From: Actinomycetota bacterium
Lineage (GTDB): Bacteria; Actinomycetota; Acidimicrobiia; IMCC26256; JACDBD01
NCBI GenBank assembly: GCA_052390575.1
Contig: JBQTGU010000050.1
Span: forward strand, 262-64,261
Direction of reading: 5' to 3'
Length of the DNA: 64,000 nt
The translations under genes and the position numbers were made by a program. Within the stretch, counting starts at the first letter, position 1. The number at the start of each line of letters is the position of its first letter. The notes under the pieces were generated by a model that did no database searches, was not told the origin of the DNA, and saw only the letters and a program-made list of their open reading frames with translations. Below, piece after piece: positions 9,734 to 46,789 of this stretch.

Positions 9734-11404
9734 TCAGGGATCCCACCGCGCCAGCTCCCGCTCGAGCTGGGCCAGGCCCATGTTCCCGAGGTCGAGGGCG
9801 TGGCGGTGGAACGCCTTGAGGTCGAACCGGTCGCCGAGACGCCGGCGAACCGCCTCGCGCGCCCCCAGCCAGACCCGCTCGCCCACCTTGTAGCTGATCG
9901 CCTGGCCGGGCCAGCCGAGGTAGCGGTCGACCTCGCTGGCCATGAAGTCGGCCGGCATCTTCGAATGCGTGATCGCGAACGGGAGTGCCAGCTCGGGTGT
10001 CCACGTCTCGCCCGCATGGGGGTCGCCCTCGGGAACCGCGAGCTCGAGGTGAAGCCCGATGTCGACCACCACCCGCATCGCCCGCATGGCCTGCGCCGCC
10101 AGCATGCCCATCTCGTCGCCGGGGTCGTCGAGGTACCCGAGCTCGCCCATGAGCCGCTCGGCGTACAGGGCCCAGCCCTCGCCGTGGCCCGAGCTCCACG
10201 CCAGGCTGCGCTGGAAGCGGGTGAGCTCGTCGGCGAGGTAGAGCACCTGCCCGACCTGGAGATGATGGCCGGGGACGCCCTCGTGGTAGCAGATCGACAC
10301 CTCCTTCCACAGCGGGAAGCGGGTCTTGCCCAGCGTCGGGTACCAGGTGCGCCCGGGCCGGCTGAAGTCCTCGGAAGGCGGCGTGTAGTACATGGCGGCG
10401 GCGCCACCGGGCGGCGCGATCATCGCCTCGACCCGCTGCACCGGCTCGGGGATGTCGAAGTGGATGTCGTCGAGCTCGGCGACGGTGCGGTCCATCAGGT
10501 CCTGGAGCCACCGGCGCAGCGCGTCCTCGCCCTCGATCGACCGGGCCGGCGACGAGTCCAGGTGCTCGATGACGGCGTCGACCCCTTCACCGGGCAGGAT
10601 GCGCTCGGCGACCTCGCCCATCGCGTGCTCGATGCGGTGGAGCTCGTCCCAGCCCCACCGGTAGGTCTCGTCGAGGTCGAGGGTCATGCCGGTGAACGCC
10701 CGGGCGCGACGCGAGTAGCGGTCGGCGCCGACCGCGTCGCGCTCGGCCGCTCGGGGCGAGTACTCGTCAGTGAGGAAACGGGCGCAGGCGGCGTACGCCT
10801 CGGTGGCGCGGTGCGCCCGGTCCTCGAGCGTGCGCCGCAGCGTTCCGTCGTCCTCCAGCTGCTGCACCAGGCGAGGGAAGAACGGCGGGTCGTCGTCCCC
10901 CAGCCCACCCCAGGTCTCGGCCTGCTTGGCGCACGTCACGACCTGACGGCGGGCGGCAACCAGGCCGCGCCGCGCCCCCTCGGAGAGCGTGTCCTGGTAG
11001 CTCGACAGCGCCGCCGGCACGAGCGCCATCCGGGCCGCGATCGCGTCCCAGTCCGACTCGGTCTCGGTGGGCATGAGGTCGAACACCTGCCGGACCGCCT
11101 GCAGCGGGCTGGCGATGTTGTTGAGCTCGCACAGGTGCTCGCCGGCGTCGTGGAGCTCCACGCCGAGCGAGAGCTCCTCGACCATGACCTCGGCGGCGAC
11201 CCGGTCGCGGTCGTCGTCCTGGGGCGCATGCTCGAGCTGGGTGAGTGTGGCTCGGGCGTGGTCGGCGCGCTCGTCGGCGGCGTCGGGCCCGTAGTCGGTC
11301 ATCTCGGAGTCGTGGCCGGTGATCCCGGCGAACGTCGCGCTGATCGGGTCGAGGGCGGCGAACCGCTCGACGTACTCGTCCGCGATCTCGTCCACGCTCG
11401 GCAT
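9734..11404 (-). CDS. DUF885 domain-containing protein
   Basis: CYHEGVPGHHLQ and the GEGWALYAERL pattern typical of DUF885 proteins; 556 aa. Confidence 0.75.
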   Translation of the reverse strand: MPSVDEIADEYVERFAALDPISATFAGITGHDSEMTDYGPDAADERADHARATLTQLEHAPQDDDRDRVAAEVMVEELSLGVELHDAGEHLCELNNIASPLQAVRQVFDLMPTETESDWDAIAARMALVPAALSSYQDTLSEGARRGLVAARRQVVTCAKQAETWGGLGDDDPPFFPRLVQQLEDDGTLRRTLEDRAHRATEAYAACARFLTDEYSPRAAERDAVGADRYSRRARAFTGMTLDLDETYRWGWDELHRIEHAMGEVAERILPGEGVDAVIEHLDSSPARSIEGEDALRRWLQDLMDRTVAELDDIHFDIPEPVQRVEAMIAPPGGAAAMYYTPPSEDFSRPGRTWYPTLGKTRFPLWKEVSICYHEGVPGHHLQVGQVLYLADELTRFQRSLAWSSGHGEGWALYAERLMGELGYLDDPGDEMGMLAAQAMRAMRVVVDIGLHLELAVPEGDPHAGETWTPELALPFAITHSKMPADFMASEVDRYLGWPGQAISYKVGERVWLGAREAVRRRLGDRFDLKAFHRHALDLGNMGLAQLERELARWDP

Positions 11405-13530: not shown

Positions 13531-15902
13531 AGGACAAGCCCATGGCGGAGCTCGACGCCGCCCGGCTCGAGAACGGGGCGCTGCCCCTGCTGCCACTGGC
13601 GGCGGGCGTGGTGCTCCCCCAGACCGTTGTGACCCTCGTCCTCGAGAGCGACGAGGCCCAAGCGGCCGCGGCCGTCGCCCTCGACGGCGACCGCCGGGTC
13701 CTGCTCGTGCCCCGCACCGAGGGCGGGTACGCGCGCGTCGGGACCGTCGCCCGGGTCGAGGACTCAGGGGAGCTCCCGAACGGCGCCAGCGCCGTCGTCC
13801 TGCGCGGCCTGCACCGCGCCGTCCTGGGCGCGGGCGTGACCGGCACCGGGTACGGGCTCTGGGTCCAGGCCGACCCGGTCGAGGACGGCCCGCCGTCGGA
13901 CCGCGTCCGTGAGTTGGGCCGCGAGCTGCGGTCGGTCCTCACCGTGCTCGCCGAGCGCCGCAGCTCGCGCCGCCTCCCCGAGCTCCTCCGCAGCGTCGAC
14001 GACCCCGGTGCGCTCGCCGACGGCTTCGGTGCCTGGAGCGACATGGCCGCCGAGCGCAAGGTCGAGCTCCTCGAGACCGTCGACGTCGAGGCGCGCGTCG
14101 AGAAGGTCCTCGACTGGGCACGGGAGGCGCTGGCCGAGCACGAGGTGACCGAGCGCATCCGCAGCGAGGTCAATGACGGCATGGAGAAGACGCAGCGCGA
14201 GTTCCTGTTGCGCCAGCAGATGGCCGCCATTCGCAAGGAGCTGGGCGAGGACGGCGACGACGACGTCATCGAGACCTACCGGGAGCGCATCGCCGAAGGG
14301 TCCCCTCCCGAAGCCGTGCGCGAGGCCGCCACCCGCGAGGTGGATCGGCTCGAGCGCACCGGTGAGCAGAGCCCCGAGCACGGCTGGATCCGCACCTGGC
14401 TCGACAGCCTCCTCGACGTCCCCTGGGGCGAGTCGACGCCCGACCGGCTCGACGTCGGCGACGCCCGTCGCATCCTCGACGAGGACCACACCGGGCTCGA
14501 CGACGTCAAGGACCGCATCGTGGAGTACCTGGCGGTGCGCAAGCTGCGGGCCGAGCGCGGCATCACCGACAGCGGGGGAGGGTCCGACCGGGCCCGAGGC
14601 GGCGGCGCGATCGTCGCGCTCGTCGGCCCCCCGGGCGTCGGCAAGACGTCGCTGGGTGAATCGGTCGCACGCGCCATGGGGCGCAAGTTCGTGCGGGTCG
14701 CCCTCGGAGGCGTCCGCGACGAGGCCGAGATCCGGGGGCACCGGCGGACGTACGTCGGCGCCCGTCCCGGCCGGATCGTGCGCGCCCTCACCGAGGCAGG
14801 CACGATGAACCCGGTCGTCCTGCTCGACGAGGTCGACAAGCTCGGCGCCGACTGGCGGGGCGATCCGTCGTCGGCCCTGCTCGAGGTGCTCGACCCGGCC
14901 CAGAACCACACGTTCCGCGACCACTACCTCGAGGTCGACCTCGACCTCTCCGAGGTGCTGTTCCTCGCGACCGCCAACGTGGTCGAGACCATCCCCGGGC
15001 CCCTCCTCGACCGGATGGAGCTCGTGCGGCTCGACGGGTACACCGAGGACGAGAAGGTCGCCATCGCGCGCGACCACCTCCTGCCGCGCCAGGTCCCGCG
15101 CAACGGGCTGAACCCGGGCGAGGTCGTCGTGCCCGACGACACCCTGCGGCTCGTGGTGGTCGACTACACCCGCGAGGCGGGGGTGCGGAACCTCGAGCGG
15201 GAGCTGGGCAAGCTGCTGCGCAAGGTCGCGGCCCGAGTGGCGGCCGGCGATGTGACGCCGCCGCTGACCGTCGTCGAGAGCGAGGTGCAGCCGCTCCTGG
15301 GCCGGCCCAAGTTCTTCGCCGAAGCGGCCGACCGCACCGCCACCCCCGGCGTCGCGACCGGGCTGGCCGTGACCGGCACCGGCGGCGACGTCCTCTTCAT
15401 CGAGGCCAGCGTCATGGACGGCGAGCCCGGCTTCACCCTGACCGGTCAGCTCGGTGACGTCATGAAGGAGTCGGCCCAGATCGCGCTGTCCTACGTGCGG
15501 GCGCACCAGGACGAGCTCGGGCTCCCGGGCGACGCCGCCACCCGGCGGTTCCACCTCCACGTGCCCGCCGGCGCTGTGCCCAAGGACGGGCCGTCGGCCG
15601 GCATCACCATGACGACCGCGCTCGCCAGCCTGCTCTCGGGGCGGTCGGTGCGCGCCGGCGTGGGGATGACCGGCGAGGTCACGCTCCAGGGCCGGGTGCT
15701 GCCGATCGGCGGCGTCAAGCAGAAGGTGCTGGCCGCCCAGCGGGCCGGGCTGACCACGGTGGTCCTGCCCACCCGCAACGGCCCCGACCTCGACGACGTC
15801 CCCGAGGCGGTGCGCGACGCGCTGACCTTCCATCTCGTCGACGACATCAGCGAGGTGCTGGCGATCGCGCTCGAGCCCGAGGCGAGCGACCAGGCCGCGT
15901 AA
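13524..15902 (+). CDS. lon: ATP-dependent Lon protease (LonA)
   Basis: N-terminal LON domain, Walker A GPPGVGKTS, and protease motif PKDGPSAGITM. An alternative start at Met7 (13542) has a better GGAGGA SD sequence. Confidence 0.95.
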   Translation: MVEDKPMAELDAARLENGALPLLPLAAGVVLPQTVVTLVLESDEAQAAAAVALDGDRRVLLVPRTEGGYARVGTVARVEDSGELPNGASAVVLRGLHRAVLGAGVTGTGYGLWVQADPVEDGPPSDRVRELGRELRSVLTVLAERRSSRRLPELLRSVDDPGALADGFGAWSDMAAERKVELLETVDVEARVEKVLDWAREALAEHEVTERIRSEVNDGMEKTQREFLLRQQMAAIRKELGEDGDDDVIETYRERIAEGSPPEAVREAATREVDRLERTGEQSPEHGWIRTWLDSLLDVPWGESTPDRLDVGDARRILDEDHTGLDDVKDRIVEYLAVRKLRAERGITDSGGGSDRARGGGAIVALVGPPGVGKTSLGESVARAMGRKFVRVALGGVRDEAEIRGHRRTYVGARPGRIVRALTEAGTMNPVVLLDEVDKLGADWRGDPSSALLEVLDPAQNHTFRDHYLEVDLDLSEVLFLATANVVETIPGPLLDRMELVRLDGYTEDEKVAIARDHLLPRQVPRNGLNPGEVVVPDDTLRLVVVDYTREAGVRNLERELGKLLRKVAARVAAGDVTPPLTVVESEVQPLLGRPKFFAEAADRTATPGVATGLAVTGTGGDVLFIEASVMDGEPGFTLTGQLGDVMKESAQIALSYVRAHQDELGLPGDAATRRFHLHVPAGAVPKDGPSAGITMTTALASLLSGRSVRAGVGMTGEVTLQGRVLPIGGVKQKVLAAQRAGLTTVVLPTRNGPDLDDVPEAVRDALTFHLVDDISEVLAIALEPEASDQAA

Positions 15903-40925: not shown

Positions 40926-41531
40926 CTACCAGGCCGAGCCGTAGCGGTCGCGGTGGGCGTGCTCGGCCACGGGCTCACGGCGGGGCGGCCCCAGCGGTCG
41001 CGCCGGCCATCCGAGTGGAACGACCGCGACCGGCTCGACGTGCTCGGGAAGCCCGACGACCGCGCGCAGATCGGCGGCGAGCGCGGCCGTCAGCGTCGTG
41101 AGGGCCGAGCCCAGCCCGACGGCGTTGGCGGCCAGGAGCAGGTTCTGTAATGCCGGGAACGTCGACGACGCCACCGTCGCCGGGTGGCAGCGCGTCGTGT
41201 CGGCGCCCACGACGACCACGACTGGCGCGGCGCTGACGCCACCGGTTGCGCCCTGCTCGACGTCGGCGAACAGCTTCGGGGCGAGGCGCCCCTCCGAGTG
41301 GGCCCGCCCGCCTTCTTCCCACAGCCGGCGGGTGAGGGCGCCGATGCGCTCGCGCGTGCCGGCATCGCGCACGACCACGAACACCCACGGCTGGCTGTTC
41401 TCGGCACTGGGCGCGAACGTCGCCGCCTCCAGCACCCGCTCGACGAGGTCGTCGTCGACGGGCTCGTCGCGGAACGACCGGCACGCCCGCTGGGCCCGCA
41501 CGACCTCGAAGAACGAGGGCTCGTCGGTCAC
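40926..41531 (-). CDS. Nitroreductase family protein
   Basis: RACRSFRDEPV and APSAENSQPWVFVVV motifs. The GTG start overlaps the upstream stop codon (GTGA). Confidence 0.85.
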   Translation of the reverse strand: MTDEPSFFEVVRAQRACRSFRDEPVDDDLVERVLEAATFAPSAENSQPWVFVVVRDAGTRERIGALTRRLWEEGGRAHSEGRLAPKLFADVEQGATGGVSAAPVVVVVGADTTRCHPATVASSTFPALQNLLLAANAVGLGSALTTLTAALAADLRAVVGLPEHVEPVAVVPLGWPARPLGPPRREPVAEHAHRDRYGSAW

Positions 41532-42172
41532 GCCGGTCGTTCGCCCAGCCGGCGGAAGCTGTTGACGTACATGATTCGCAGCTCGGGTGTGTTGGCCCAT
41601 CCGTCCCACCCGGGCGTGCCCGGTTCGCCCAGGAGCGTCATGACCAGTGGCGGCATGGCCTGGAACGCGGCCTCGGGGTCCTCGGTGTCCATCTCGTAGA
41701 AGTGCATGAAGCGGGGGTCGCCGCCGCTGACGTTCTCGTAGGGCGTGATCATCGAGAACCCGGGCACGCCCACTTCGGCGATGTGGCGGATGTGCACGAA
41801 GTCGGCCCAGTCGCGGAGGGCCTGCGCCTGATTCGCCTCCCGCGGGCTGATGAGCACGAGCGACAGTCCGATGGTCGGCTTGCCGGTGAGCCGACCCTGG
41901 GCCGGACGCGGGTAGCGACGGAAGTGGTGGCCGGTCACCTCGCCCGGGGTATCGGGCGTAGTGAAGTCGTCGCCGACCTCGTACACACCGAGCCGCCCAA
42001 ACTCGGGCAGCTTGCGGGGCAGGTCGTCGCGGTCGCGGTACACGTTCTCCCACCATGTGGCCCGTTCGACGCCGGGCAGCACCAGCACTTCCGGCACCCG
42101 TTCGGCGACGTAGTCGTCGACCGCGCGATCGGTCATCTCCAGGTACAACCCAGGTGTCAGCCGGTCCTCCAC
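41528..42172 (-). CDS. Hypothetical protein
   Basis: 214 aa with good GC3 bias, sitting between the repeat element and the nitroreductase gene. The start is taken as the GTG 9 nt after GAGG; Met39 (42136) is an alternative. Confidence 0.6.
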   Translation of the reverse strand: MEDRLTPGLYLEMTDRAVDDYVAERVPEVLVLPGVERATWWENVYRDRDDLPRKLPEFGRLGVYEVGDDFTTPDTPGEVTGHHFRRYPRPAQGRLTGKPTIGLSLVLISPREANQAQALRDWADFVHIRHIAEVGVPGFSMITPYENVSGGDPRFMHFYEMDTEDPEAAFQAMPPLVMTLLGEPGTPGWDGWANTPELRIMYVNSFRRLGERPA

Positions 42173-42270
42173 CTCTACTGCCTCGCTCGCTGCGGCGCAG
42201 GGTGCCTGCGCCGCGGTCGCTCGCTCCGACGCCAAGTTCGAGCAAGACACATTGATCGTGCCGCTTGCAT
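42173..42270 (-). repeat. Intercistronic conserved element, copy A (~98 nt)
   Basis: Read on the minus strand: ATGCAAGCGGCACGATCAATGTGTCTTGCTCGAACTTGGCGTCGGAGCGAGCGACCGCGG, then the hairpin GGCGCAGG-CAC-CCTGCGCC, then GCAGCGAGCGAGGCAGTAGAG, then the GTG start. The flanks match copy B at 50/60 and 21/24 positions. Confidence 0.75.
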
Positions 42271-42281
42271 GCGCGCGGAGC

Positions 42282-43136
42282 CTACGGCTCGATGCCCAGC
42301 AGGGCGCAGGGGTTGGTGCACGCCATCGTGCGCAGCTCCTTTTCTGAGAGCCCCTCGCCGGCGAGCGTGTCGACGTACGACTGGAAGCCTTCGGCCGGCG
42401 GGACGTTCGCCTTCTGGCCGAAGTCGGTGGCGAGCGTGCAGCGCCCGACCCCGATCGTGCGCGCCGCCGCCGCCATCACCTCCGGCGGCCGGGTGGCCAG
42501 CGCGCCCAGGCACGTCAGGGCACAGAGCTCGATCGTGGCCCCGAGGTCGGCCAGCTCCACGCACTGGTCGACCGAGAGGTTCGGGCCCGCCAGCTCCTCG
42601 AGTGCGTGGGTCACGAGCGTTCGGCCGCGCTTACCGAACTCTTGTGTGACCGCGAGGTGCTCCTCCCACGTGACGTGGCCGGTGGCGAGTATCGCGCCGA
42701 ACTCCTCGACCAGATCGAGGACCTCGCGGGTCTCCGGAAGCAGCGCACCGGCGTCGTCGGTCACCGAGAGGCCGGGGCCGGGGATGCCGAGCTGGGCGCC
42801 GACCCCGTTGAGCTGGTCCTGCCGGCTCGTGAGCGTCGGCAACCACACGATCTTGGCGCCGAGGCGCAGCGCGGTCTCCACCGCGGCGGGGTTGACGCCC
42901 CCCACTTCCCGGTCGCAACAGATGCCACCGAACACACGGACGCCATGGACGACCCGGTCGACGATCGCGGCCAGCGCAGGAGTGGGGTAGTCGTGCGACT
43001 TGAGCACGACGGCTGCATGGCCGGCCTCGGCCGCGTCGCGCGCCGCTTCGAGCGCGTCGACCGAGCGCTCGCGGTGGGCGTCGGGGCCGAAGTGGCAGTG
43101 CAGGTCGGCCGCGCCGCGCAGATCGATGGTGCCCAT
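42282..43136 (-). CDS. Metal-dependent hydrolase, amidohydrolase/PHP-like
   Basis: N-terminus MGTIDLRGAADLHCHFGPD (DxHxH metal motif), then ATGHV and a late ATDFGQ motif. The start is Met32 of the track ORF. Confidence 0.65.
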   Translation of the reverse strand: MGTIDLRGAADLHCHFGPDAHRERSVDALEAARDAAEAGHAAVVLKSHDYPTPALAAIVDRVVHGVRVFGGICCDREVGGVNPAAVETALRLGAKIVWLPTLTSRQDQLNGVGAQLGIPGPGLSVTDDAGALLPETREVLDLVEEFGAILATGHVTWEEHLAVTQEFGKRGRTLVTHALEELAGPNLSVDQCVELADLGATIELCALTCLGALATRPPEVMAAAARTIGVGRCTLATDFGQKANVPPAEGFQSYVDTLAGEGLSEKELRTMACTNPCALLGIEP

Positions 43137-43249
43137 CACTATTGCCTCGCTCGCTGCGGGCCGGGCCAGCCAGAAAGGGATTGGCCGGCCCGCGACCGCT
43201 CGCTCGGACGCCAAGTTCGAGGAATGCACATCGGCCGTGCCGGTTGCAT
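43137..43249 (-). repeat. Intercistronic conserved element, copy B (~113 nt)
   Basis: Read on the minus strand: ATGCAACCGGCACGGCCGATGTGCATTCCTCGAACTTGGCGTCCGAGCGAGCGGTCGCGG, then the hairpin GGGCCGGCCA-N13-TGGCCCGGCCC, then GCAGCGAGCGAGGCAATAGTG, then the ATG start. It begins inside the dodecin stop codon. Confidence 0.75.
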
Positions 43250-43464
43250 CAGTCGTCGAGGCGGAAGCCGATTTTCATCCCGACCTGGAAGTGACCGACC
43301 TCACCATCCTTGATCCAGCCCCGGATCTCGGTCACCTCGAACCAGTCGAGGTTGCGCAGCGTCTGGCCGGCGCGCGACACGCCGTTGCGCACCGCATCCT
43401 GGATGCTGGCCTCCGACGTTCCCACGACCTCGGTGACCCGGTATGTGTGCGGAGACTCGGTCAT
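43249..43464 (-). CDS. Dodecin family flavin-binding protein
   Basis: 71 aa. YRVTEVVGTSEASIQDAVRNGVSRA...WFEV pattern typical of dodecins. Confidence 0.85.
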   Translation of the reverse strand: MTESPHTYRVTEVVGTSEASIQDAVRNGVSRAGQTLRNLDWFEVTEIRGWIKDGEVGHFQVGMKIGFRLDD

Positions 43465-43484
43465 CGATCCTCCTCGCTCGGGTT

Positions 43485-43519
43485 CGTCACGCTAATGCGC
43501 GACCACCGATAACGTGACG
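43485..43519. promoter_or_regulatory. Perfect 7-bp inverted repeat with a 21-nt spacer in the dodecin / acyl-CoA synthetase divergent region
   Basis: CGTCACG (43485-43491) and CGTGACG (43513-43519). It lies between the divergent start codons at 43464 and 43514/43523. Confidence 0.35.
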
Positions 43520-45238
43520 GGCATGTCAGCAAACCGGGTGCGGAGTGCGCCGGCGCCGGGACAGGCGCCGATGCCGGCGGCGAACGCCGCTGCGCTCCTG
43601 CGTCGGAACGCGACCGATCCCAACATTCGCGATCGTCCGGCGGTGAAGTTCGACGACGACGTGTGGACCCACGCCGAGTACGTCGCCGAGTCGACCCGCT
43701 GGGCCAACCTGTTCCTCACCCGCAAGCCGGCCGACCGCGCCCTGCACGTGGGGGTGCTGCTCGACAACGTCCCCGAGTACCTCTTCGCCCTCGGCGGCGC
43801 CGCCCTGTCGGGATCGGCGGTGGTTGGGCTCAACCACACCCGGAGGGGCGAGCATCTCCTCCGCGACATCAAGCACACCCATGTCGGCCTGATCGTCACC
43901 GCACCCGGCCACGAGGCGCTACTCGAGCCCATCGCCGACCGGCTCCCGCCCGTCCTCGTCGTGGGACCTGGCCTCGCCGGCGCGCTCGACGAACAGTCGC
44001 GCGGCGACCCCGGCCTCGAGCCCGAGCCCGACACGGTCTGGGGGCTCATCTTCACGTCGGGCACATCCGACGCGCCCAAGGCGGTGATCTGCACCCAGCG
44101 CCGGTTCATGGTCACCGGCAACCGCATGGGCATCATCATGGGCGTCGAGCCCCACGACGTCGGTTACGTGTGCATGCCGCTGTTCCACTCGAACGCCCTC
44201 ATGGTCGGGTGGGCACCCTCGATCGTCTACGGCGCGGCGGTCGGGCTCGGCCGGCGTTTCAGCGCCTCGCGGTGGCTGGGCGACGTCCGCCGCTACGGTG
44301 CGACCTGGTTCAACTACACCGGCAAGCCTCTCGCCTATCTGCTCGCGACTCCGGAGCAACCCGACGACGCCGACAACCCCCTCCGGGTCGCGTTCGGCAA
44401 CGAAGGCTCACCCGAGATCGTCGACGCGTTCGCCCGCCGATTCGACGTCGAGGTCATCGACGCCTACGGCGCCACCGAGGGGGGCGTGGCCGTCAACCGC
44501 GACGCCGAGGAACGGCCGGGCGCGCTGGGCCAGGCCGACACCGCGGTCAAGGTCGTCGACGAGGACGGCAACGAGCTGCCGCCGGCGCGCATCGATCCCG
44601 CGACCGGGCGGGTGCTCAACGCCGACGAGTGCGTCGGGGAGATCGTCAACACCGCCGGGGTCGGGCCGTTCGACGGCTACTACAACAATCCCGAGGCGAA
44701 CGAGCGCACCACCCGGTTCGGCTGGTACTGGACCGGCGACCTCGGCTATCTCGACGACGACCGCTACCTCTACTTCGCCGGGCGCACCGCCGACTGGATC
44801 CGGGTCGACGGCGAGAACTTCCTCGCGGCACCGATCGAGGCTGCGCTCGCCCGCCACCCCGACGTGGTGCTCGCGGCTGCCTACGGAGTCCCCGACGACG
44901 AGGCCGGCGACCAGGTGATGGCGGGGCTCGTGCTGCGGGACGGCAGCGCGTTCGACCCGGCCGGCTTCGCCCGCTGGCTCGACGAGCAACCCGACGTCGG
45001 CCCGAAGTGGCGGCCCCGCTACGTGCGGGTCCTGCGCGACCCGCCCACCACCGGCACCAACAAGATCGTGAAGCGGGCGCTCGTGCACCAGAAGTGGCGG
45101 GCGGATCTCGCCGGGGGCGATCCCGTCTTCGTCCGTCTCCGTGGCGACGACGACTACCGATTGTTCAGCGAAGACGACGAGCGGGCGCTGCACGACTCGT
45201 TCGTGCGCAACCAGCGCGAACGGTTCTGGGATCTCTAA
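43514..45238 (+). CDS. Acyl-CoA synthetase (AMP-forming, FadD-like)
   Basis: FTSGTSDAPKAV AMP-binding motif, YGATEGG, WYWTGDLG, and a C-terminal GTNKIVKR. The ATG at 43523 is an alternative start. Confidence 0.9.
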   Translation: MTGMSANRVRSAPAPGQAPMPAANAAALLRRNATDPNIRDRPAVKFDDDVWTHAEYVAESTRWANLFLTRKPADRALHVGVLLDNVPEYLFALGGAALSGSAVVGLNHTRRGEHLLRDIKHTHVGLIVTAPGHEALLEPIADRLPPVLVVGPGLAGALDEQSRGDPGLEPEPDTVWGLIFTSGTSDAPKAVICTQRRFMVTGNRMGIIMGVEPHDVGYVCMPLFHSNALMVGWAPSIVYGAAVGLGRRFSASRWLGDVRRYGATWFNYTGKPLAYLLATPEQPDDADNPLRVAFGNEGSPEIVDAFARRFDVEVIDAYGATEGGVAVNRDAEERPGALGQADTAVKVVDEDGNELPPARIDPATGRVLNADECVGEIVNTAGVGPFDGYYNNPEANERTTRFGWYWTGDLGYLDDDRYLYFAGRTADWIRVDGENFLAAPIEAALARHPDVVLAAAYGVPDDEAGDQVMAGLVLRDGSAFDPAGFARWLDEQPDVGPKWRPRYVRVLRDPPTTGTNKIVKRALVHQKWRADLAGGDPVFVRLRGDDDYRLFSEDDERALHDSFVRNQRERFWDL

Positions 45239-45241
45239 ACC

Positions 45242-46405
45242 GTGGACCTGAGCTTCACCGAAGAGGAGCAGGCGTTCGCGGAGGAGGTGCGCGCCTGGCT
45301 CGCCGACAACCTCGAGCTGCCGCCGCCGTTCGGCTCGCTCGACGAGGAGATCGAATGGGGCCGGGCGTGGCAGGCGAAGCTGGCCGCGGACCGCTGGGTG
45401 GGCATCCACTGGCCGGCCGAGTACGGCGGCCGGGGCGCGTCGCCGGTGCAGGTGGCGATCTTCAACATGGAGTACGCCCGCTCGCGTGCGCTCCAGCCGG
45501 TCAACCGCGTGGGCATCAACCTGGCGGGGCCGACCCTGCTGGCGCACGGCACCGAGGCGCAGAAGCAGCGGTGGCTCCCGGCGATCCTCGACGCCGGGGA
45601 GATCTGGTGCCAGCTGTTCAGCGAGCCCGGCGCCGGCTCCGACCTGGCCGCGCTGGCCACCCGGGCGGTGCCGGCCGAGGGCGGGTGGCTGCTGTCGGGC
45701 CAGAAGGTGTGGACGAGCTACGCCCGTCAGGCCCGCTGGGGCATCTGCCTGGCGCGCACCGACGCCGATGCACCCAAGCACCGTGGCATCTCGTACCTCG
45801 TCGTCGACGTGGAGGCACGGGGCATCGACGTGCGTCCGTTGGTGCAGATCACGGGCGAGGCCGAGTTCAACGAGGTGTTCCTCGACGAGGTGTTCGTACC
45901 CGAGGACCACCTCGTCGGCGAGCTCAACCAGGGCTGGGCCGTCGCCAACACCACGCTGGCGCACGAGCGCGGCACCGCCTTCCCCTTCAAGGAGCAGGTC
46001 GTGCACGAGGTCTACCTCGACGAGCTCTACGCGCTGGCGGCCGAGCGCGGAGTGCTCGACGATCCCGAGGCGTCCGATGCGCTCGCGCAGGCGTTCGTGG
46101 AGCTGCGGGTGCTCCGGTTGCACAACTGGCGCACGTTGTCGCGTCTCGCCGAAGGGATCGAGCCCGGTCCGGAGTCGAGTTGGGTGAAGCTGGCCTGGAC
46201 CGACATGACCCAGCACCTGTCGGAGAGCGCGCTGGGCGTGCTCGGCGACGCCGCGCCGCTGTGGGCGGGCGCGGCCGAGAACCCTGCCGACGGGAAGTGG
46301 CAGCGCCAGTGGCTGTGGAGCAAGGCGGCGTCGATCGCCGGCGGGACGTCCGAGGTCCAGCGCACGATCATCGGCGAGCGGCTGCTCGGTTTGCCTCGGG
46401 GATAG
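45242..46405 (+). CDS. Acyl-CoA dehydrogenase
   Basis: EPGAGSDLA and GGTSEVQRTIIGERLLGLPR motifs; 387 aa. Confidence 0.9.
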   Translation: MDLSFTEEEQAFAEEVRAWLADNLELPPPFGSLDEEIEWGRAWQAKLAADRWVGIHWPAEYGGRGASPVQVAIFNMEYARSRALQPVNRVGINLAGPTLLAHGTEAQKQRWLPAILDAGEIWCQLFSEPGAGSDLAALATRAVPAEGGWLLSGQKVWTSYARQARWGICLARTDADAPKHRGISYLVVDVEARGIDVRPLVQITGEAEFNEVFLDEVFVPEDHLVGELNQGWAVANTTLAHERGTAFPFKEQVVHEVYLDELYALAAERGVLDDPEASDALAQAFVELRVLRLHNWRTLSRLAEGIEPGPESSWVKLAWTDMTQHLSESALGVLGDAAPLWAGAAENPADGKWQRQWLWSKAASIAGGTSEVQRTIIGERLLGLPRG

Positions 46406-46411
46406 GCTGAA

Positions 46412-46789
46412 TTGATGGTTCGGGTTTCGGGGCTCGATCACGTCGTGCTGAACGTCGCCGACGTCGAGCGTTCGCTGGCGTGGTACACGGGCGAGCTGGG
46501 CCTCGGCGGCGAACGGGTCGAGGAGTGGAGGAACGGCAAGGCGCCGTTTCCGTCGGTGCGCGTCGACGAGACCACCGTGATCGACCTCGTCGCCGCGCCG
46601 CGAACCGGCGAGAACGTCAACCACGTCTGTCTCGTCATCGAGCCGGACGGTATCGACGACCTGGTCAACTCCGGTCGGTTCGAGGTGCTCGAAGGACCGG
46701 TGGAGCGTTGGGGCGCGCAGGGTGTCGCGACGAGCGTGTACCTCTGGGACCCCGACCAGAACTTGGTCGAACTGCGTCACTACGGCTGA
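46412..46789 (+). CDS. VOC family protein (glyoxalase/dioxygenase fold)
   Basis: GLDHVVLNVADVERSLAWYTGELGL, and NHVCL later in the protein. Confidence 0.75.
   Translation: MMVRVSGLDHVVLNVADVERSLAWYTGELGLGGERVEEWRNGKAPFPSVRVDETTVIDLVAAPRTGENVNHVCLVIEPDGIDDLVNSGRFEVLEGPVERWGAQGVATSVYLWDPDQNLVELRHYG

Follow-up and report, generated by a model that had tools for sequence, protein, structure and literature searches.

Two intergenic elements in the DUF6282 operon

We analyzed a 64,000-nt stretch of contig JBQTGU010000050.1 (positions 262 to 64,261, forward strand; assembly GCA_052390575.1) from a member of the Acidimicrobiia, hereafter the window, and found that two consecutive intergenic gaps in it are occupied by members of a family of intergenic elements, 96-111 nt long, that is dispersed in this class. 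The gaps lie in one operon, among four co-oriented genes on the minus strand that encode a dodecin (43464..43249), a DUF6282 protein (43136..42282), a 214-aa protein with no Pfam match (42172..41528) and, next after it, a nitroreductase. Homologues of the DUF6282 protein with 88-92% identity are labelled 'Acidimicrobiia bacterium'.

Copy B is a full element of 111 nt with a long type of hairpin and occupies the gap between the dodecin and DUF6282 genes (43139..43249, minus strand; nhmmer profile positions 1-96, E = 7e-21). Copy A is a full element of 96 nt with a short type of hairpin and occupies the gap between the DUF6282 gene and the gene of the 214-aa hypothetical protein (42175..42270, minus strand; nhmmer profile positions 1-96, E = 9e-23). 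A preliminary description of this DNA, made from the sequence, had placed two co-oriented copies in these same gaps, and this location holds. The copies are 979 nt apart, and the profile search found no third copy in the window. A repeat finder returned a 5' block of 60 nt with 83% identity (50/60; 42211-42270 versus 43190-43249), thereby reproducing the earlier count, and a 3' block of 27 nt with 89% identity (42169-42195 versus 43133-43159) that supplies, as had been claimed, a GAGG ahead of the downstream start. Identity runs for at most 15 nt plus 9 nt, where 17 identical nucleotides had been reported. The 25-nt core CTCGAACTTGGCGTCNGAGCGAGCG matches exactly in both copies, with 0 matches in 100 shuffles, as does the 3' block sequence GCAGCGAGCGAGGCANTAG. 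Aligned over their whole length, copies A and B are 81% identical and differ by a single 15-nt indel within the hairpin.

Both copies are read on the minus strand. Copy B begins in the pentamer TGATG (43247..43251), where the dodecin stop codon TGA (43251-43249) overlaps by one base the ATG (43249-43247) of a mini-open reading frame (mini-ORF) of 36 codons, with the translation MQPARPMCIPRTWRPSERSRAGQSLSGWPGPQRARQ before its stop (within 43139..43249). The invariant core CTCGAACTTGGCGTCCGAGCGAGCG (43197..43221) is followed by the long-type hairpin (43154..43194, including its CGCGG and CCGCAG feet), for which folding gives an 11-bp stem, GGGCCGGCCA/TGGCCCGGCCC, and a 9-nt loop. Within the 3' block GCAGCGAGCGAGGCAATAG (43139..43157) lie a GAGG Shine-Dalgarno sequence and the TAG that ends the mini-ORF (43141-43139). 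The ATG of the DUF6282 gene, fixed by the lengths of its homologues (282-292 aa), stands 2 nt past this stop (43136-43134).

Copy A has the same organization. Its mini-ORF of 31 codons (within 42175..42270) has the translation MQAARSMCLARTWRRSERPRRRHPAPQRARQ before its stop, its invariant core CTCGAACTTGGCGTCGGAGCGAGCG lies at 42218..42242, and its short-type hairpin (42190..42215) folds into a stem GCGGCGCAGG/CCTGCGCCGC of 10 bp, rather than the 8 bp first described, with the loop CAC. The 3' block GCAGCGAGCGAGGCAGTAG (42170..42193) comprises the Shine-Dalgarno sequence and the stop TAG (42177-42175), followed by the 2-nt spacer AG and the GTG start of the 214-aa protein gene (42172-42170); the orthologues of this gene start with ATG GAG GAT (MEDR...), at the same codon as the GTG of the window. 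Eight nucleotides upstream of the copy A ATG lies TAGGCT (42279..42284), a -10-like TANNNT box as judged from the sequence and from family statistics, the TAG of which is the stop codon of the DUF6282 gene. The direct repeat GAGCGAGCG, already noticed in the preliminary description, flanks the hairpin on both sides in both copies.

A family of elements placed on start codons

A 20-mer from the core was scanned against one genome per species and against metagenome contigs, and a profile built from the first copies was then used in an nhmmer search for further members. The 20-mer gave 10 exact core matches on 9 contigs of one Acidimicrobiia metagenome-assembled genome, TH_ant_mag_105, and was present in 106 metagenome stretches. 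Extended with the profile, the search of other genomes that the preliminary description had proposed returned 119 full-length matches, or 100 after removal of redundant ones, together with partial copies. The 20-mer also matched in Pseudomonas, Polyangiaceae and others; these hits fall within a conserved gene, lack the rest of the element and were set aside. The reverse complement of the 20-mer equals the 5' end of a conserved Pseudomonas gene (ATGGCTCGCTCGGACGCCAAGTTCGG; L002, L006-L010 and other loci), a chance identity that calls for caution in pattern scans.

The family anatomy was described from an alignment of 68 copies with 108 columns and zero gaps. It includes an ATG or GTG (columns 1-3), a GCGGCAC box (columns 7-13), a variable stretch of fixed length that is mostly without a consensus base (columns about 18-33), the invariant core ACTTGGCGTCCGAGCGAGCG (columns 34-53), a 10-bp stem (columns 57-66 and 70-79) with the loop TA[CT] (columns 67-69), the sequence AGCGAGCGAGGC (columns 80-91) and a TAG or TAA (columns 94-96), after which come 2-3 nt and the start codon of the next gene. 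The Shine-Dalgarno block after the hairpin reads GCAGCGAGCGAGG. Columns 34-53 served as the search key, so their conservation is not open to judgement, while the other columns are free of that bias. Sixty-nine of the 96 unique copies are exactly 96 nt long. In 15 copies a second hairpin type of about 33 nt (GGCCGGCCAATCCCTTTCTGGATGGCCCGGCC) takes the place of the short stem and yields 111-nt elements; this long type, present in copy B, recurs in L011, L049, L140 and L141.

Pairing in the hairpin is clearly maintained. Within the 68-copy alignment, 97.9% of the cells of the short-type helix are in standard pairs, compared with 84% after shuffling of the columns and 37-55% after a shift of the 3' partner by 1-3 columns, and 5 of the 10 stem pairs have changed on both sides (GC to CG, CG to GC, AU to GC). 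The variants are a few discrete stems (CGCAGG, GCCGGG, GCGGGG, CCGGGG and a flipped outer pair), thus the independent covariation events are modest in number. The central hairpin had been called compensatory from a comparison of copies A and B; true covariation exists inside the short type, but the hairpins of A and B are two discrete recurring types and not one drifted stem. Exceptions to pairing are of the G-U type (5) and the A-C type (4) in roughly equal numbers, and therefore the data are silent on whether the hairpin acts as RNA or as DNA. As whole elements, the window copies fold no more stably than their shuffles (z = -1.4 and -1.3), and for this reason only the central hairpin is counted as structure. 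An outer helix proposed by RNAalifold, GGCGUC/GAGGC, was not adopted, as it is invariant, has a central mismatch, lacks covariation and involves the search-key core. The variable 12-nt stretch was also considered as an anti-Shine-Dalgarno sequence and rejected, its duplex being only 0.8 kcal/mol better than that of shuffles (p = 0.10).

The mini-ORF is a feature of the family. An ATG or GTG stands in frame at position 1 in 72 of the 100 copies (54 ATG and 18 GTG; the frame reads ACT TGG CGT), a stop codon lies exactly at the element end in 81, and 66 of the 96 unique copies have a complete mini-ORF of 31-45 codons. Among the end codons scored, TAG occurs 66 times, TAA 11 times and TGA twice. 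The boundary codons vary among synonyms, which fits selection for start and stop function and not plain sequence identity. Codon 2 and the codons of the variable stretch are unconstrained, whereas the third base of codon 3 is invariant; this combination makes a peptide function of the product unlikely, and the peptide itself is probably not the point of the mini-ORF.

On the 3' side, the next ATG or GTG follows the element stop after 2 nt in 47 copies and after 3 nt in 17, GAGG stands 8-9 nt ahead of this host start codon, and gene calls in relatives put the host start exactly at the codon after the element. Gene orientation was assigned by a GC-phase test, a method based on open frames and high GC content at third codon positions having been dropped as unreliable in 70% GC DNA. 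The downstream gene is co-oriented with the element in 69 of the 79 assessable copies and the upstream gene in 52 of 64. The downstream genes form 51 clusters, and 49 proteins match 71 Pfam families, of which many are housekeeping; among the families are ATP synthase gamma, S11, Def, Gmk, DHDPS, AroQ and a class I tRNA synthetase. These at least 51 unrelated gene families of soil Acidimicrobiia, together with the insertion polymorphism described below, contradict both a ligand-sensing leader, one of the roles suggested at the outset, and a gene-specific regulator.

On the 5' side, the upstream stop codon overlaps the first codon of the element (e.g. TGATG) in 16 of the 68 distinct flanks, as exemplified by copy B. 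A TANNNT box, mostly TAGNNT, is found at -16 to -10 (with a peak at -13 and -14) in 30 of the 68 flanks, against 0.5 expected from background; in this class the box lies 7-9 nt upstream of the first codon, and where the upstream gene is divergent it is present in 7 of 8 copies. In actinobacterial promoters TANNNT is the -10 element, and leaderless mRNAs are recognised by a start codon that follows it within a few bases. Transcription in the TANNNT class may thus start at the ATG. A sigma-70 two-hexamer scan of 41900-43700 found nothing, and the promoter support consists of the -10-type TANNNT signal from family statistics. The mini-ORF with its own start and stop, the -10-like box or stop overlap at the 5' end and the recurrence of the hairpins as modules had all been missed by the preliminary description.

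Gain, loss and remodelling at orthologous loci

The two junctions were compared among contigs that encode DUF6282 homologues of falling identity to the window protein, namely L146 (92%), L141 (90%), L142 (88%), L144 (83%), L145 (80%) and L147 (77%). The dodecin/DUF6282 junction is empty in L146, where the same TGATG joins the dodecin stop to the DUF6282 start (GACTGATGCCG), and also in L141, L144 and L145; it is filled by an element with the short hairpin in L142 and by one with the long hairpin in the window. The junction between the DUF6282 gene and the hypothetical gene is empty in L145 (GTCGTGATGGAGGAT, with a TGATG overlap), holds a full element with the short hairpin in the window and L142 and a full element with the long hairpin in L141, and is occupied in L147 by a 72-nt form without hairpin, the ATG of which overlaps the DUF6282 stop (ATGA), and in L146 by a 27-nt remnant (ATGCAAACGGCACGACCAACGAGGTAA). 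At this second junction, every element-bearing state keeps the mini-ORF open up to a point 2 nt short of the host start. TAGGCT is found at the copy A position also in L141 and L142, while the empty site of L145 is without it.

A third junction, between an acyl-CoA dehydrogenase and a glyoxalase gene, is filled in L142 and empty in the window. At this empty site (46403-46417, plus strand) the acyl-CoA dehydrogenase stop lies within a TAGGCT, 6 nt before the glyoxalase ATG, and this TAGGCT looks like a leaderless-type -10 box inside an operon. Elsewhere, two-copy tandems were found in L039, L092 and L112, and copy number differs at orthologous loci, with two copies in L039 and one in each of L081, L054 and L040. 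The 214-aa protein (41528-42172, minus strand), despite having no Pfam match, is conserved beside the DUF6282 and nitroreductase genes in L141, L142, L145 and L147, the relatives with contigs long enough.

These comparisons settle the status of the two window copies as a pair. That they stem from a recent local duplication without wider meaning might be suggested by their distance of 979 nt within one operon and by the absence of any other copy from the window. However, this reading is already refuted, and we give it practically no weight: more than 100 copies exist elsewhere, the window copies carry different hairpin types, each of which is common to copies in other genomes, and relatives have one, both or neither of the copies.

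The empty sites bear in the same way on the scenario, raised as a caveat in the preliminary description, that the gaps are translated as N-terminal extensions of the downstream proteins in the frame reading SNLASERA...AASEA. Neither window copy interrupts this frame, and the resulting ORFs are 315 and 240 aa long; it is also open in 78 of the 100 family members. However, 118 of the 120 DUF6282 homologues listed are 280-293 aa long, which sets the start of the protein at the ATG after the element, and the empty sites encode the same N-terminus (MPTIDL or MEDRLTPG) directly past the upstream stop, so that for the window genes the scenario is excluded. Across the family, 49 unrelated proteins with matches to 71 Pfam families would all need the same extension, and GAGG stands 8-9 nt before the annotated start codon. 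We therefore consider translated extensions very improbable.

At filled orthologous sites the variable stretch is recognisably orthologous but diverged and the core is identical, while the hairpin type sometimes differs. Since the hairpin type differs at orthologous sites with the same 5' half, the hairpin module appears to have been replaced or converted between copies. Forms without hairpin were found in L005 before rplJ, in L023 before frr and in L147, and are most simply explained as deletions between the GAGCGAGCG direct repeats; in L023 the loss of the hairpin shifts the frame, and the new end is a TGA that overlaps the frr ATG. In L110 (4628-4667) and L116 (4387-4426) the hairpin module with its GCGAGCG flanks stands alone, just past a stop codon and not before a start, which indicates that the module is able to exist apart from the full element.

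Such observations have to be weighed for a DNA element resembling repetitive extragenic palindromes (REPs) or palindrome-associated transposable elements (PATEs). Under this explanation the hairpin module with its GCGAGCG flanks would be the mobile unit, recognised as single-stranded DNA by a tyrosine (HUH) transposase, and the 5' half and mini-ORF would be passengers or a favoured landing pad. It would account for the hairpin module occurring alone or with only the 3' half (L021 7764, L004 827, L001 1220, L110 4667 and L116 4426), for the exchange of hairpin types beside an orthologous 5' half, for a related 60-nt unit with the same GGTATCC loop in the more distant genome L148, and for the near equality of G-U-type and A-C-type mismatches, which speaks of no RNA-strand bias. 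However, the foot of the palindrome has no conserved GTAG, units in inverted pairs were not seen, REPs do not share the strict orientation and placement of the element with respect to start codons, and the 5' half also recurs, at more than 100 loci. No transposase gene is linked to the element, although no genome-wide transposase search was made. Taken together, we regard a REP-like or PATE-like origin as improbable.

A second explanation concerns the host. The element may be a cis-acting RNA module in which the core and hairpin are bound by a protein or a small RNA, or form an mRNA processing or stabilising site, and which places the genes under common post-transcriptional control, the mini-ORF being incidental or secondary. 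The near-invariance of the core and 3' block at orthologous loci, where the adjacent stretch of about 12 nt diverges about as fast as neutral sites, is in line with it, and so are the pair changes on both sides that keep the hairpin, the fixed length of the variable stretch behind the 69 copies of exactly 96 nt, which suggests a spacing constraint, and the third-codon positions of the 5' box, which are invariant while first and second positions vary, as expected from a constraint on nucleotides rather than on a peptide. However, the same genes lack the element in close relatives, the downstream genes share no theme, hairpin-less and heavily deleted derivatives persist, and no Rfam family matches. 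The whole-element folds that do not surpass shuffles, the mismatched outer pairing GGCGUC/GAGGC with its lack of covariation, and the complementarity of the variable stretch to the Shine-Dalgarno block that does not exceed chance (p = 0.10) also count against an RNA module, and we rate it as unlikely.

Scans for copies in viral contigs and a BLAST search of plasmids found none, and a literature search found no description of this repeat family. The Rfam comparison proposed earlier, run at E up to 10 on 42100-43320, gave only chance-level microRNA and RAGATH matches, and at the gathering score the whole window gave only group II intron parts elsewhere. The intron parts are domains D1-D4 (98.5 bits) at 128-263 and the catalytic domain (41.5 bits) at 1997-2072 on the plus strand; they flank a 479-codon ORF (551-1987), and matches and ORF together probably represent an entire group II intron and the protein that it encodes.

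Sequences related to the element were observed in other places. In L148, a 4.5-Mb Acidimicrobiia contig, three tandem 60-nt units (CGGAGCGGCGAGCGCCCGCGAGGCGGGTATCCCGCCGAGCAGCGAGCGCGACCATGGGAC) lie at 15688-15863 (plus strand) between the hypothetical and the nitroreductase gene, where the gene caller took them for a C-terminal protein extension, and another unit of the 60-nt type lies at 9924-9973 (minus strand) on the start codon of a 5-formyltetrahydrofolate cyclo-ligase gene. These units form a shorter related family with the same GGTATCC loop that resembles a variable number tandem repeat (VNTR). Upstream of rplK (ribosomal protein L11), a copy of the 3' half only, preceded by a different GC hairpin, is common to L005 (5397-5448), L110 (9936-9987) and L129 (2624-2675); it may represent either an ancient, fixed family member or the origin of the family.

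Translational relay and comparison with known repeats

The reading we favour, and consider probable, is that of an intergenic element gained and lost on start codons in the manner of mycobacterial interspersed repetitive units (MIRUs), with expression of the host gene kept up by relay translation. The first codon of the element would occupy the former point of ribosome delivery, which is the stop codon of the preceding gene in one context and the +1 region of a leaderless-type promoter in the other. Ribosomes would then translate the mini-ORF (31-36 codons in the window copies) through the GC-rich hairpin, terminate at the TAG or TAA, and re-initiate 2-3 nt downstream at the host start, aided by the GAGG 8-9 nt upstream of that start. 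With such a relay, gain, loss, shortening or tandem repetition of the element would do the host gene little harm. Conversion or replacement would keep the hairpin and its GAGCGAGCG flanks uniform among copies, and the same flanks would permit deletion of the hairpin by slippage. The suggestion of a MIRU-like interspersed intercistronic repeat, made among others in the preliminary description, is supported by the more than 100 copies in Acidimicrobiia, by presence and absence at orthologous sites and by the structurally kept hairpin.

Several points weigh against this relay. A complete mini-ORF is missing from 30 of the 96 unique copies, and translation of the mini-ORF is predicted from the sequence. 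In the variable stretch the mini-ORF frame has the fewest stop triplets (4 versus 12 and 7 in the others), but this is suggestive at most (p = 0.076), the length variants that are multiples of 3 (19 of 27) belong mostly to one hairpin type and are not independent events, and the consensus is open in all three frames except for the terminal stop. Conservation of the core is subject to ascertainment bias, the copies having been found by searching for it; the identity of the core at orthologous sites where the adjacent 12 nt drift could equally fit a nucleotide-level function for the host. Finally, the term 'mobile' rests on presence/absence polymorphism, for no target-site duplication or terminal inverted repeats were found. 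In the copies read there are no terminal inverted repeats, the 5' end (ATGnnnGCGGCA...) and the 3' end (...GAGGCAATAG) not being inverted repeats of one another; matches between flanking bases are no commoner than in shuffles; and the 5' and 3' start codons are uncorrelated (p = 0.38), so that start-codon duplication is not seen and the TGATG at both ends of copy B is a single case.

A more far-reaching version of the relay may be entertained, although we find it doubtful. The element would be a portable translation-relay cassette that seeks start codons, combines a leaderless-compatible start codon, mini-ORF, hairpin, Shine-Dalgarno sequence and stop, and spreads without target duplication or inverted repeats; a dedicated trans-acting factor, whether a mobilising enzyme or a host regulator of at least 100 genes, would recognise its core and covarying hairpin.

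On the relay reading, the family would be a second, independent and far better sampled case of the MIRU principle, that is, of repeats on start codons that relay ribosomes, from a barely cultured class of actinobacteria. The empty, filled, swapped and deleted states at the same loci offer material for working out how the element moves. In genome annotation, gene callers may take the element for an N-terminal extension and the related units of L148 for a C-terminal one. The tandem forms are potential VNTR markers for strain typing in Acidimicrobiia, and the cassette could serve in engineering as a natural design for context-independent translation initiation.

Several known systems resemble the element in part. 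Rickettsia palindromic elements insert into genes, whose protein products then include the translated insert. They share with the element the character of selfish repeats structured to sit in or next to coding sequence without destroying expression, but the element lies outside the host protein and has a separate mini-ORF. REPs and bacterial interspersed mosaic elements (BIMEs), with their REP-associated tyrosine transposases (RAYTs), are likewise small, extragenic and present in many copies per genome, and have an imperfect GC-rich palindrome with kept pairing and discrete sub-types. In contrast to them, the element has no GTAG head at the stem, its only conserved [AG]TAG being the mini-ORF stop 17 nt 3' of the stem; it was not seen in inverted pairs, is strictly oriented and positioned on start codons, and has an extra 50-nt non-palindromic 5' half with a start codon. 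The features of miniature inverted-repeat transposable elements were not found, as the copies read have no terminal inverted repeats and target-site duplication does not exceed that in shuffles.

Leaderless short upstream ORFs of mycobacteria follow a TANNNT box, begin at the transcription start or beside it, end beside the main start codon and have been proposed to deliver ribosomes to it (Shell et al. 2015, cited in PMC12548453). The element is similar in having a short ORF behind a TANNNT box that ends beside the start of the main gene and is proposed to deliver ribosomes. However, the mycobacterial ORFs are locus-specific, whereas the element, polymorphic between relatives, is one conserved cassette that recurs before no fewer than 51 unrelated gene families.

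MIRUs come closest. A recent review describes them as mobile units whose insertion at start codons couples an internal ORF to the gene (PMC12548453, which summarises Supply et al. 1997). Like them, the element is a short dispersed intergenic repeat of actinobacteria (96-111 nt, against a MIRU range of about 40-100 bp within the span of tens to about 100 nt) that is oriented as the flanking genes and sits at start codons, has in most copies (66 of the 96 unique ones) a small ORF of its own linking the upstream stop to the downstream start, sometimes forms tandem arrays, as in L039, L092 and L112, with copy number varying between orthologous loci, and is read as an insertion that spares host expression by translational coupling. 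The likeness is one of description, and the host class differs, the element belonging to Acidimicrobiia and MIRUs to Mycobacterium. MIRUs are described as being without dyad symmetry, whereas the element has a strongly conserved covarying GC-rich hairpin. The mini-ORF of the element stops 2-3 nt before the host start instead of in a 4-nt ATGA overlap: overlaps of the MIRU type are found at the 5' end in only 16 of the 68 flanks and normally not at the 3' end, where an ATGA overlap occurs only in the shortened frr copy of L023. Nearly half of the element copies stand behind a -10-like box, in a leaderless-type context, in contrast to MIRUs, which lie inside operons. The element is thus close to MIRUs in kind and differs from them in four respects, namely its conserved covarying hairpin, its non-overlapping stop-to-start spacing, its frequent leaderless-type context and its host class.

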